From: an uncultured Eubacteriales bacterium | GTDB lineage: Bacteria; Bacillota; Clostridia; Christensenellales; UBA1242 | Assembly: GCA_949031345.1 (NCBI GenBank) | Contig: CARNVA010000004.1 | Coordinates: forward strand, 468 to 64,467 | Length of the DNA: 64,000 nucleotides | Reading direction: 5' to 3' | Shown here: piece by piece, positions 7,522-53,534 of the stretch | Layout: every line of letters starts with the position of its first letter | Position numbering within the stretch: the first letter of the stretch is position 1 | Position numbers and translations under genes: made by a program | Notes under the pieces: model-generated | What the model was told of the DNA's origin: nothing | The model's database searches: none | The model's input: only the letters and a program-made list of their open reading frames with translations

Positions 7522-7549
7522 ATTTTACCCCCCCCCGATTTATTGTCAA
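7522..7549 (-). promoter_or_regulatory. Sigma-A-type promoter with a G9 tract in the spacer (surface gene A)
   Basis: Minus strand 7549->7522 reads TTGACA ATAAATC GGGGGGGGG TAAAAT. The plus-strand C9 is at 7528-7536 and the spacer is 16 nt. The promoter lies ~95 nt upstream of the ATG at 7426. Confidence 0.7.
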
Positions 7550-34016: not shown

Positions 34017-36641
34017 TTATCTTCTTGGATTTTTAATATTAGCTTGAGCAGCAGCAAGTCTTGCAATAGGCACTCTAAATGGAGAGCAAGATACATAAGT
34101 GAGCCCTGCATTATGGCAGAATTCAACACTTGATGGGTCTCCACCATGTTCACCACAGATTCCAAGTTTGATATCTGGGCGAGCTTTTCTTCCAAGTTCG
34201 CAAGCCATTTTTACAAGTTTACCAACACCATTTTGGTCAAGTCTTGCAAATGGGTCGCTCTCAAAAATCTTCTTAGCATAGTAAACATCAAGGAATTTAC
34301 CAGCATCATCACGGCTGAAACCATAAGACATTTGAGTAAGGTCGTTTGTACCAAATGAGAAGAATTCAGCATATTTTGCCACTTCATCAGCAGTAACAGC
34401 AGCACGAGGAATTTCAATCATTGTACCAATTTTGTAAGAAAGTTCTACACCATTTTCTGCAATAACTTCGTCAGCTTTTGCAGCAACAATATCGCGAACA
34501 TACTTAAACTCTTTTGAGTCACAAGTAAGCGGAATCATGATTTCAGGAACAATCTTGAAGCCCATTTCTTTATTTACATCAATTGCAGCTTCAATGACTG
34601 CTTGAGTTTGCATTTCAGCAATTTCAGGATAAGTTACGGCAAGTCTAAGACCACGGTGACCCATCATTGGGTTGAATTCGTGAAGGTCAGCAACAGTTTG
34701 CTTAAGCTTATCAAATGTGATGCCCATTTCTTCAGCAAGTTCTCTTATCTCAGTGTTTTCATGAGGAAGGAATTCATGAAGAGGTGGATCAAGGAAACGA
34801 ATAGTCACAGGAAGACCTTGCATTGCCTTGTAAATTCCAATAAAGTCTTTTCTTTGCATAGGAAGAAGTTTCGCAAGAGCTTTCTTTCTCTCTTCAACAG
34901 TTGTTGAAACAATCATTTCTCTCACTGCAGGAATTCTGTCAGCTTCAAAGAACATGTGTTCTGTTCTGCAAAGACCAACACCTTGAGCGCCAAAGTTGAA
35001 CGCATTTTTAGCGTCTTTTGGATTGTCGGCGTTTGTTCTTACTTGCATAGCGCGATATTTATCAGCCCATTCCATGATAGTGGCAAATTCGCCAGAAATC
35101 TTAGCAGGCTCAGTAGTGATAAGACCATCATAAACTTTTCCAGTAGAGCCGTCAAATGAGAGTTCATCACCTTCATGATAAACTTTTCCACCAAGAGTGA
35201 AAGAGCTTTCATCTTCAGCAAATTTGATTGCACTGCAACCAGCAACGCAGGCAGTACCCATACCACGAGCAACAACGGCAGCGTGAGAAGTCATACCACC
35301 TCTTGCAGTGAGAACGCCTTGGCTGACAGCCATACCTTCGATATCTTCAGGAGAAGTTTCAAGTCTTACAAGTACAACTTTGTCAGTTTGAGCCATTTCT
35401 TTTGCTCTTTCAGCTGTGAAAGCAATTTTTCCACAAGCAGCACCAGGAGAAGCAGGTAAAGCTTCAGCAATTGGAGTAGCAGCCTTTAAAGCTTTTTCTT
35501 CAAATTGTGGGTGCAAGAGAGCATCAAGCTGTTTTGGATCAAGCATCATAAGAGCTTCTTTTTCAGTAATCATGCCCTCGCTTACGAGGTCAACAGCAAC
35601 TTTTAAAGCAGCTTTTGCAGTACGCTTTCCATTTCTTGTTTGAAGCATATAGAGTTTGCCATTTTCGATTGTAAACTCCATATCTTGCATATCTTTGTTA
35701 TGCTCTTCAAGTTTCTTTGCAATATTTGCAAATTCTTTATATACTTTTGGATTTTGTTTTTCAAGGGTTGAAATAGGCAGTGGTGTTCTAATTCCGGCAA
35801 CAACATCTTCGCCTTGAGCATTCATAAGATATTCTCCGTAAAGAACATTTTCACCAGTTGCAGGGTTTCTAGAGAACGCAACACCTGTACCAGAAGTTTC
35901 GCCCATGTTTCCGAATACCATTGATTGAACATTGACAGCAGTGCCCCATTCGTATGGAATGTCATGCATTCTTCTGTAAACATTAGCTCTGTCATTATCC
36001 CAAGAACGGAATACCGCTCTTACCGCCTCAATAAGTTGCACTCTTGGCTCTTGAGGGAAGTCCTCGCCTTGAGATTGCTTATAAAGGTCTTTAAACATAG
36101 CTACGATTTCTTTAAGGTCGTCAGCTGTGAGGTCTTTGTCAAACTCAACACCCTTTTCTTCCTTAACTTTGTCAAGTATTCTTTCATACTTAGACTTTTC
36201 TTGTTGCATAACAACATCACTGAACATTTGGATAAATCTTCTGTAAGAGTCATAAGCAAATCTAGGATTGTTTGTAAGTTTTGCAAGCCCTTCAACAACT
36301 TCATCATTAAGACCAAGGTTGAGAATAGTATCCATCATACCAGGCATTGAAACTCTTGCACCAGAACGAACAGAAACAAGAAGAGGATTTTTCTTATCTC
36401 CGAAATTTTTTCCAGTCATTTTTTCAAGCTCAGAAAGCTTGTATTCAATTTGTGACATGATAAGGTCATTTATCTTTCTGCCATCCTTGTAATACTGAGT
36501 GCAGGCCTCAGTTGTAATGGTAAAACCCTGTGGAACAGGCATACCAAGATTTGTCATTTCAGCGAGGTTTGCGCCCTTGCCACCAAAGAGAGCCTTATCT
36601 TTTCCATTGGCTTCTTTGAACAGATAAACAAATTGTTTCAT
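34017..36641 (-). CDS. ppdK: Pyruvate, phosphate dikinase
   Basis: 874 aa, with GGKGANLAEM, the phospho-His region GGMTSHAAVVARGMG, and the PEP-utilising C-terminus (FFSFGTNDLTQ). Confidence 0.92.
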   Translation of the reverse strand: MKQFVYLFKEANGKDKALFGGKGANLAEMTNLGMPVPQGFTITTEACTQYYKDGRKINDLIMSQIEYKLSELEKMTGKNFGDKKNPLLVSVRSGARVSMPGMMDTILNLGLNDEVVEGLAKLTNNPRFAYDSYRRFIQMFSDVVMQQEKSKYERILDKVKEEKGVEFDKDLTADDLKEIVAMFKDLYKQSQGEDFPQEPRVQLIEAVRAVFRSWDNDRANVYRRMHDIPYEWGTAVNVQSMVFGNMGETSGTGVAFSRNPATGENVLYGEYLMNAQGEDVVAGIRTPLPISTLEKQNPKVYKEFANIAKKLEEHNKDMQDMEFTIENGKLYMLQTRNGKRTAKAALKVAVDLVSEGMITEKEALMMLDPKQLDALLHPQFEEKALKAATPIAEALPASPGAACGKIAFTAERAKEMAQTDKVVLVRLETSPEDIEGMAVSQGVLTARGGMTSHAAVVARGMGTACVAGCSAIKFAEDESSFTLGGKVYHEGDELSFDGSTGKVYDGLITTEPAKISGEFATIMEWADKYRAMQVRTNADNPKDAKNAFNFGAQGVGLCRTEHMFFEADRIPAVREMIVSTTVEERKKALAKLLPMQRKDFIGIYKAMQGLPVTIRFLDPPLHEFLPHENTEIRELAEEMGITFDKLKQTVADLHEFNPMMGHRGLRLAVTYPEIAEMQTQAVIEAAIDVNKEMGFKIVPEIMIPLTCDSKEFKYVRDIVAAKADEVIAENGVELSYKIGTMIEIPRAAVTADEVAKYAEFFSFGTNDLTQMSYGFSRDDAGKFLDVYYAKKIFESDPFARLDQNGVGKLVKMACELGRKARPDIKLGICGEHGGDPSSVEFCHNAGLTYVSCSPFRVPIARLAAAQANIKNPRR

Positions 36642-36761
36642 ATAGTCTCCTTTTATAATTTCCTCTTAAAGTATAGCTCATTTAAAAAAAATCTCCAAAT
36701 AATTTGGAGCAATTTTTATAATTTTTTATCTTATGTAAAATTTAATCTTCATCAAAAACTT

Positions 36762-37028
36762 TTATGAGCAAGCAGAAACTATCAACCCAATAAACATCAA
36801 AAATACAACAAGCCCAATCATAACGCCAAGCCCGATAAGCCAGCCTTTAATAAAAGTCTTTCGTTCATACTCATATTGTGGCAATGGATATAAAAGCAGG
36901 CCGACAATAAGCCCGATTATTCCAAGCAGAAATAAAAGTATCCCAATTCCAAGTTTTGATTGTCTTTTGAAAGAAAGACCTTTAAAATCTTCCCCATTTT
37001 GCCCATTCTTATCTTCAAAATGTTCCAA
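36762..37028 (-). CDS. Small membrane protein (paralog of 42600-42895)
   Basis: The in-frame TTG at 37026-37028 is preceded by AAGGTGGGAGAAT. The product is (M)EHFEDKNGQNGEDFKGLSFKRQSKLGIGILLFLLGIIGLIVGLLLYP...ERKTFIKGWL... The tracked ORF start (TTG at 37076) is actually the -35 hexamer. Confidence 0.55.
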   Translation of the reverse strand: MEHFEDKNGQNGEDFKGLSFKRQSKLGIGILLFLLGIIGLIVGLLLYPLPQYEYERKTFIKGWLIGLGVMIGLVVFLMFIGLIVSACS

Positions 37029-37049
37029 ATTCTCCCACCTTCCACTTTC

Positions 37050-37076
37050 ATTATACCCCCCCCCGAAATATGTCAA
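37050..37076 (-). promoter_or_regulatory. Sigma-A-type promoter with a G9 tract in the spacer (small membrane-protein gene)
   Basis: Minus strand 37076->37050 reads TTGACA TATTTC GGGGGGGGG TATAAT. The plus-strand C9 is at 37056-37064 and the spacer is 15 nt. Confidence 0.65.
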
Positions 37077-37084
37077 GTAATTTT

Positions 37085-37119
37085 AAAAAAAATCTCCAAT
37101 TTTTGGAGATTTCTTTTTT
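37085..37119. terminator. Hairpin terminator (A-run / T-run flanked)
   Basis: AAAAAAAATCTCCAA-TTT-TTGGAGATTTCTTTTTT. It is homologous to the hairpin at 40851-40876. Confidence 0.65.
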
Positions 37120-40810: not shown

Positions 40811-40839
40811 ATTTTACCCCCCCCGGTAAATTTTGTCAA
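40811..40839 (-). promoter_or_regulatory. Sigma-A-type promoter with a G8 tract in the spacer (surface gene B)
   Basis: Minus strand 40839->40811 reads TTGACA AAATTTACC GGGGGGGG TAAAAT. The plus-strand C8 is at 40817-40824 and the spacer is 17 nt. Confidence 0.7.
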
Positions 40840-42599: not shown

Positions 42600-42895
42600 T
42601 TAACAAATAAACATTAAGCTTGCAGCCGCACTAAGCACTGTAGCATAAAGAATAATAACGATAACTACATACACAGCGAGTGAAACGAAGAAGCACCAAA
42701 GCCATCCTTTAAGGAAAGTCTTGCGTTCTAAAGAGCCGTCTTTATAAAGCAAAAGACCAATAATAAGCCCAATAAGCCCAATAAAGCCACACAAAACACC
42801 AATACCAACTTTAGAGGCCCCCCATTAGTGTTGCCTTGGTTTTGAACATTGTTTGTGTTGTTGTCACTGTATTGATTGTTGTTTTGTTCTTCCAT
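42600..42895 (-). pseudogene. Small membrane protein (paralog of 36762-37028) with its frame broken at a G6 run
   Basis: ATG at 42895 after AAGGAGG gives MEEQNNNQYSDNNTNNVQNQGNTNGG, then runs out of frame at C6 (42818-42823). G7 would fuse it to ...ASKVGIGVLCGFIGLIGLIIGLLLYKDGSLERKTFLKGWL... (tracked ORF 42600-42794). Confidence 0.65.
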
Positions 42896-53506: not shown

Positions 53507-53534
53507 ATTTTACCCCCCCCCGACACATTGTCAA
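53507..53534 (-). promoter_or_regulatory. Sigma-A-type promoter with a G9 tract in the spacer (surface gene C)
   Basis: Minus strand 53534->53507 reads TTGACA ATGTGTC GGGGGGGGG TAAAAT. The plus-strand C9 is at 53513-53521 and the spacer is 16 nt. Confidence 0.7.

Follow-up and report, generated by a model that had tools for sequence, protein, structure and literature searches.

Can a run of nine guanines lodged between the two hexamers of a consensus promoter act as a length-dependent switch for a small membrane-protein gene? The question is raised by a locus on the minus strand of the window, i.e. the whole 64-kb stretch of DNA analysed here, which comes from an uncultured gut bacterium of low GC content within the Bacillota. 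Switches of this kind have been described in Neisseria, where the length of a homopolymer between the -35 and -10 elements of porA, fetA and opc sets their spacing and hence promoter strength, resulting in graded expression instead of a plain on/off state (PMC2791445; PMC3960869). We consider it likely that the G9 run is a promoter-spacer expression switch of the porA/opc/fetA type and that in the window it stands at a weak setting.

Architecture of the tract promoter

Read on the minus strand, positions 37076..37050 are TTGACA-TATTTC-GGGGGGGGG-TATAAT, where GGGGGGGGG is G9. This agrees to the letter with the preliminary description, which had reported consensus hexamers separated by only 15 nt, and the spacer is indeed composed of the 6 nt of TATTTC and the 9 nt of the tract (Table 1). 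The locus thus has the layout of a promoter homopolymer, namely, a tract of ~7 nt or more between recognisable -35 and -10 elements. It is absent from the output of the promoter scan because the scanner accepts spacers of 16–18 nt only, and the focal spacer has 15.

The pattern is not a chance match. The window (36% GC, 64 kb) contains only four G or C runs of at least 7 nt; all four are G runs, all lie on the minus strand and every one is flanked by exact TTGACA and TA[AT]AAT. TTGACA-N4-12-G8-TAWAAT is matched four times in the window, against 0.00 matches expected from 100 dinucleotide-preserving shuffles, and a tract is present in four of the five exact-consensus promoters of the window. 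Alternative elements that would bring the spacing closer to the usual value were ruled out by inspection: at 17 nt, the candidate -35 ACTTGA fits the consensus at 1/6 positions, and the candidate -10 hexamers at 16–17 nt (ATAATG and TAATGA) are poor. A search against Rfam found no known structured RNA anywhere in the window.

Table 1. Coordinates of the focal transcription unit and of related tract-bearing loci in the window
Feature	Position	Strand	Remarks
Intrinsic terminator closing the 1129-aa Flg_new surface-protein gene upstream	37085..37117	-	15-bp stem, -15.3 kcal/mol, z = -5.5, followed by U8
-35 hexamer TTGACA	37071..37076	-	Exact consensus; same in 31 same-species contigs; TTGACT in more distant L012/L013
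Non-repeat spacer part TATTTC	37065..37070	-	Invariant among same-species contigs
G9 homopolymer, hypermutable spacer part	37056..37064	-	Abuts the -10; public alleles G8/G9/G10
-10 hexamer TATAAT	37050..37055	-	Exact consensus
Ribosome-binding site GGAAGGTGGG	37034..37043	-	6 nt from AAGGTGG core to start codon
CDS, 88-aa two-transmembrane protein with conserved GIIGLIVGLLLY...ERKTFIKGW core	36762..37028	-	ORF list, orthologues, dN/dS
Terminator 3' of the small gene, CTCCAAATTATTTGGAG then T run	36685..36709	-	Terminator scan and folding
Paralogue with coding G6 tract at 42818-42823	42600..42895	-	Frameshifted in the window; G7 alone gives the 98-aa frame
Sister tract promoter TTGACA-N9-G8-TAAAAT, 17 nt	40811..40839	-	Upstream of 1129-aa Flg_new protein
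Sister tract promoter TTGACA-N7-G9-TAAAAT, 16 nt	7522..7549	-	Upstream of 1020-aa Flg_new protein
Sister tract promoter TTGACA-N7-G9-TAAAAT, 16 nt	53507..53534	-	Upstream of 1183-aa Flg_new protein

The transcription unit and its start codon

The terminator hairpin of the upstream adhesin gene is also kept in other strains and is predicted to shield the small gene from transcription entering from that side. Since this strong terminator ends 8 nt before the -35 hexamer, there is no room for a second promoter: the interval between terminator and ribosome-binding site (RBS) measures 44 nt and is wholly filled by the tract promoter, TTGACA-TATTTC-G9-TATAAT being its sole promoter-capable stretch. 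Another terminator lies 3' of the gene, and because the unit is bounded on both sides, the small gene is monocistronic. Transcription is predicted to start 6–8 nt past the -10, which would leave a leader of ~15 nt beginning at the RBS.

The AAGGTGG RBS and the TTG start of an 88-aa membrane protein, both proposed earlier, proved correct in every detail. In other strains the RBS reads GGAAGGTGAG or GGAAGGAGAG. The start codon of the window strain is TTG (37028-37026), and its position is fixed by the ATG that most strains carry at the same place. Besides the TTG start, the window strain and L002 share a substitution in the RBS, GGTGGGAG for GGTGAGAG at 37034-37037. The change from GGTGAGAG to GGTGGGAG removes the TGA that closes the upstream frame, and gene callers therefore output a 104-aa form. 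This longer ORF (36762..37076, N-terminus MTYFGGGYNESGRW...), which begins at the TTG of TTGACA, is an artefact of the window strain type. No RBS precedes its TTG, which lies just 8 nt past the terminator; in most other strains the TGA within GGTGAGAG closes the upstream frame before the true start; and orthologues begin at the ATG that matches window position 37028. The focal tract is consequently not located inside a translated frame, as a tract acting by translational phase variation would be.

The small membrane protein and its relatives

The product consists of two hydrophobic helices linked by a conserved loop (GIIGLIVGLLLY...ERKTFIKGW). At least 23 public contigs carry a gene for exactly the same 88-aa protein; for a second allele type, of 92 aa and 72–75% identical to the first (MCI8555112.1, ‘Clostridia bacterium’), 94 contigs are listed. 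With a dN/dS of 0.28 between the two types, the small gene is real and under purifying selection. In the same genome pair, dS reaches 0.455 in the small gene and 0.042 in the adjacent PPDK gene (34017-36641), a difference of about ten times. Likewise, identity in sliding windows is 81–84% over the small gene as compared to 98–100% over the PPDK gene, and towards its 3' end the adhesin gene, too, drops to 85–95%. The small gene and the adhesin 3' end are hot spots of divergence, which suggests old alleles or recombination at these two loci. The combination of high dS with purifying selection is consistent with a contingency locus, albeit not specific to one.

Searches of the 88-aa protein against Pfam and NCBIfam returned sub-threshold matches only, driven by the transmembrane helices. 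An alignment of a few close relatives has 20 invariant columns, and the two-helix GIIGLIVGLLLY-(loop)-ERKTFIKGW core that it defines is present in the window protein. A profile built from the close relatives retrieved 1609 clusters at E<=1e-3, including 243 at E<=1e-10, among 1.84 billion representatives. Most relatives checked have one to three N-terminal zinc ribbons of the CxxC...CxxC type (PF13240). This domain is absent from the window protein and its paralogue, whose N-termini are of low complexity and acidic or N/Q-rich. As the zinc ribbon of the homologues is expected on the cytoplasmic side, the ERKTFIKGW loop probably faces outward.

The distant zinc-ribbon homologues (L276–L283) have no tract, and their promoters are of the form TTGACA-17 nt-TAAAAT. 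These promoters overlap an inverted repeat (e.g. CATCACTAAATGATG), and a divergent gene of the XRE family (HTH_3) adjoins. Such an arrangement suggests repressor control where the focal lineage has its tract; the tract thus seems to have taken the place of ordinary regulation in this lineage specifically.

Tract length as the sole difference between haplotypes

Thirty-three public contigs have an intact promoter and conserve the hexamers, the tract, the RBS and the start; together with the window they make a set of 34 sequences. Their focal tracts comprise 8 G8, 25 G9 (24 public and the window) and a single G10 allele (L137), a tally in which not all entries are independent, as the contigs are consensus assemblies and several come from the same studies; exact-protein look-ups had supplied further alleles. 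The preliminary description had proposed an invariant tract as the outcome that would speak against a switch, and the tract is not invariant: its length differs among close strains with conserved flanks. L003, L005 and L010 (G9) compared to L006 and L008 (G8), L133, L134 and L135 (G9) compared to L137 (G10), and L004 (G8) compared to L007 (G9) show 0 mismatches over 2.1–3.2 kb, and in each comparison the sole gap column is the tract. A/T homopolymers of 7–8 nt in the same 2.1–3.2 kb stretches display no length differences. Thus, the focal tract is hypermutable, and haplotypes that match in all other respects are told apart by its length only.

The spacers observed are of 14–16 nt only; 17 nt (G11) was never seen among the 34 sequences. 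G9, corresponding to 15 nt, is the mode in both protein allele types, between which the focal promoter is identical, and also in a more distant lineage. The latter, L012/L013 (GCA_948949055.1, ‘uncultured Eubacteriales bacterium MGBC121240’), has TTGACT-TTTTTC-G9-TAAAAT, again with 15 nt, and its orthologue is likewise upstream of PPDK. In one further contig, L142, the sequence around position 1465 is TTGACATATTTC-G9-ATAATG; here the -10 has lost its first T or had it changed to G, which makes L142 a promoter-down variant at the tract boundary. Contigs L152 and L153 end right beside the tract, breaks that may hint at length heterogeneity within a population. A search for the exact focal flanks in a metagenome collection that does not include these mouse-gut samples gave 0 matches.

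Rearrangements were observed next to the locus. In L001 (4724-5725; 1-4059) and L009, a gene for an rve-family transposase and one for an ART-PolyVal protein of >2862 aa lie directly upstream; they replace the adhesin gene together with its terminator, and the tract promoter is intact. A G9 run is also found upstream of the transposase gene of L001 (4494-4502). Furthermore, L012 has TTGACA-ATT-C9-GAG-TATAAT at 2411-2419, with a 15-nt spacer, before a 252-aa gene without Pfam match; a tract may thus consist of C on the coding strand and lie a few nucleotides away from the -10.

Sister tracts in the window

In total, the window holds four promoter tracts and one coding tract. The three sister promoters precede genes for Flg_new surface proteins. 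The promoter of the 1129-aa protein has G8 and the optimal 17 nt in the window, and G9 with 18 nt in every public contig that spans it (9/9). The coding tract belongs to a paralogue of the small gene, whose existence had been claimed in the preliminary description and is borne out here. Its promoter is ordinary, with a 16-nt spacer, and its G6 run occupies codons 24–26, so that the tract lies inside the translated frame, as in intragenic phase variation, and in the window the transmembrane part is out of frame. In public contigs the paralogue tract is G6 (1), G7 (1: L006, called as 98 aa) or G8 (4, called as 75 aa). Hence, all three tracts that were checked in public assemblies, i.e. the focal one, that of the 1129-aa adhesin promoter and the paralogue coding tract, vary in length (3/3).

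Spacer lengths of tract and tract-free promoters

Scans of public DNA for TTGACA-N0-14-G8-TAWAAT identified at least 119 genome stretches (L014–L132) and at least 120 metagenome stretches (L156–L275). The matches listed come mainly from gut Clostridia, Lachnospiraceae, Bacilli/Mollicutes, Treponema and Saccharibacteria, with some from Streptococcus, Streptobacillus and Helicobacter. Among these matches, spacers of 14/15/16/17/18/19/20/21 nt occur 8/18/18/9/24/30/10/2 times in the genome collection and 4/18/14/10/25/27/11/6 times in the metagenome collection, and almost none are shorter than 14 nt. The spacers of the matches listed are thus distributed bimodally, with modes at 15–16 and 18–19 nt and a dip at 17 nt (9/121 in genomes, 10/121 in metagenomes).

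Tract-free exact-consensus promoters from the surrounding DNA differ in this respect. In 837 kb around the genome-collection matches, spacers of 16/17/18 nt number 6/18/7, and 17 nt accounts for 18 of 34 promoters; in 886 kb around the metagenome matches the counts are 3/14/2, and 17 nt accounts for 14 of 21. The deficit of 17-nt spacers in tract as compared to tract-free promoters is significant in each sample (Fisher's exact p ~2e-8, among the matches listed). This internal control establishes 17 nt as the normal spacing in comparable genomes, and the earlier prediction that 15 nt is a weak state fits it well, given how sharply the tract-free consensus promoters peak at 17 nt. It also follows that the poly-G promoter class is widespread and, among the matches listed, mostly off the optimum in consensus assemblies. 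In four clostridial stretches with 16-nt spacers (L031, L088, L104 and L030), a strong hairpin and a T run come directly after the tract promoter (e.g. TAAAAT-AGGGTATCAAAAAAATTTTTGATACCCTATTTT); the hairpins of L031 and L088 have no family matches in Rfam.

Proposed switch and alternative explanations

In the switch that we propose, slipped-strand mispairing during replication would add guanines to the focal tract or remove them. The resulting tract length would set both the distance and the rotational register between the exact TTGACA and TATAAT, and the change in spacing would alter the use of the promoter by housekeeping-sigma RNA polymerase. On this model, output should be weak or off at G8 (14 nt) and G9 (15 nt), intermediate at G10 (16 nt) and maximal at G11 (17 nt), G11 being the optimum by arithmetic and not an observed allele. 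Tract length would thereby act on transcription, switching would be frequent and reversible within a clone, and 15 nt would represent the low state. The retention of G9 across lineages is unexpected for a freely drifting switch; it may indicate that a persistent low state is selected, or that 15 nt is not ‘off’. The dominance of G9 can also mean that most of the population is held in the off state, as often happens with contingency genes.

A hypermutable tract might be devoid of regulatory meaning, if the promoter were permanently weak or the gene were transcribed by terminator read-through from the adhesin transcript, and length variation would then be neutral. The restriction to 14–16 nt in 34 sequences and the dominance of G9 in all lineages agree with such noise, and read-through could draw on the upstream adhesin gene, which is on the same strand and has its own tract promoter. 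However, the terminator is strong, and both hexamers stay exact consensus across lineages as the flanks diverge, something not easily understood if the promoter were never used efficiently. Moreover, the confinement of long G runs to promoter spacers in a 36% GC genome argues for selection, and tracts are carried independently by both paralogues. We regard neutral variation as unlikely. Another possibility is that a rigid G run abutting the -10, or some other contact with the polymerase, makes 15 nt the functional setting, from which changes in length would tune the promoter away. Indeed, 15 nt (N6+G9) is kept in three sequence lineages, L012 has a second tract promoter of that spacing, and tract promoters in two independent samples peak at 15–16 and 18–19 nt and dip at 17 nt among the matches listed. 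Yet this bimodal off-optimum spread is just as much to be expected if, in the majority population, phase-variable genes are mostly OFF, and 17 nt is the spacing both of tract-free promoters in the same DNA and of those of homologous genes. The optimum of sigma-70/sigma-A promoters, as well as of porA and opc, is 17 +/- 1 nt, and in view of this knowledge a displaced optimum seems to us quite improbable.

The length differences themselves could have been produced by sequencing or assembly from a constant tract, as G runs of 8 or more are error-prone, the comparison sequences are all short-read metagenome assemblies, some of low coverage, and L152 and L153 break right next to the tract. Against this, differences between consensus sequences turn up repeatedly, in many assemblies made by different studies and pipelines; A8/T8 runs within the same 2–3 kb never differ; and variation affects three separate tracts, the paralogue spanning three lengths with gene calls that change accordingly. 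An assembly artefact is therefore very unlikely, even if consensus contigs leave some room for homopolymer error. Finally, the tract could be taken for a coding-region (translational) switch in the 104-aa ORF starting at the TTG of TTGACA, since the ORF list gives 36762..37076 and some gene callers predicted such a form (P0001). The lack of an RBS, the TGA in ATG-type strains and the ATG start of orthologues make the chance of this negligible. A promoter-spacer switch at a weak setting is thus the reading that we retain, and to the extent that sequence can tell, the interpretation in the preliminary description is upheld.

Comparison with known systems

The focal promoter most resembles those of Neisseria meningitidis porA (poly-G) and opc/fetA (poly-C), in which a G/C homopolymer is likewise placed between -35 and -10. 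In porA, G11 (17 nt) gives high expression, G10 an intermediate level and G9 the off state, a scheme that maps directly onto the focal G8–G10 alleles. By contrast, the focal host belongs to the uncultured low-GC Bacillota of the gut and is not a proteobacterial pathogen, the focal tract abuts the -10, neither hexamer departs from the consensus, the gene encodes a small inner-membrane protein with two helices rather than an outer-membrane porin or adhesin, and the focal alleles have been seen on the short side of the optimum only. In Mycoplasma hyorhinis, poly-A tracts in the -35/-10 spacers of the vlp genes switch surface-protein genes one promoter at a time. That system shares with the focal one the spacer homopolymer, the low-GC Bacillota/Mollicutes lineage and the large number of such promoters per genome, but its tracts are poly-A and not poly-G, its products are lipoproteins, and its switching was shown experimentally, whereas the focal case is known from sequence.

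Repeat length also controls the spacing of promoter elements in Haemophilus influenzae hifA/hifB, where TA repeats lie in overlapping promoters, and in Bordetella pertussis fim, where the repeat is poly-C. The former is a dinucleotide repeat and in the latter the distance concerned is that from an activator site to the -10, whereas the focal tract is a mononucleotide run in a plain -35/-10 spacer. Campylobacter and Helicobacter are similar in that G/C runs of at least 8 nt are rare in their low-GC genomes and cluster at phase-variable surface-structure genes (PMC8355987; PMC6321876). Their tracts are intragenic as well as intergenic, the former being of the type of the paralogue G6/G7/G8 coding tract; most tracts there are intragenic (translational), whereas four of the five variable tracts of the window lie in promoter spacers. 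With a tract whose length differs between otherwise identical strains, the focal locus is very probably a known kind of switch in a new organism and a new gene family.

Implications

The mechanism is textbook knowledge for a few pathogens and hardly described for uncultured gut Bacillota. A bolder interpretation, which we advance with little confidence, is that poly-G promoter tracts constitute a large uncatalogued ‘phasome’ in uncultured gut anaerobes and are held off 17 nt on either side, either because a poised, mostly silent state, two steps short of full output, is selected or because a G run abutting the -10 shifts the spacing rule of the polymerase and makes 15 nt a working setting. The avoidance of 17 nt by tract promoters, as observed among the matches listed, could become a screen for phase-variable promoters in metagenomes. 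For annotation, the tracts are a cause of gene-calling errors, the 104-aa and 75-aa forms being artefacts of tract state, and tract lengths in assemblies are snapshots of populations and not fixed genotypes. Overall, a sizeable repertoire of stochastic switches seems to operate in this commensal, covering Flg_new surface proteins as well as a family of small membrane proteins, and control of this kind makes it probable that the latter are under pressure from phages, immunity or the niche.
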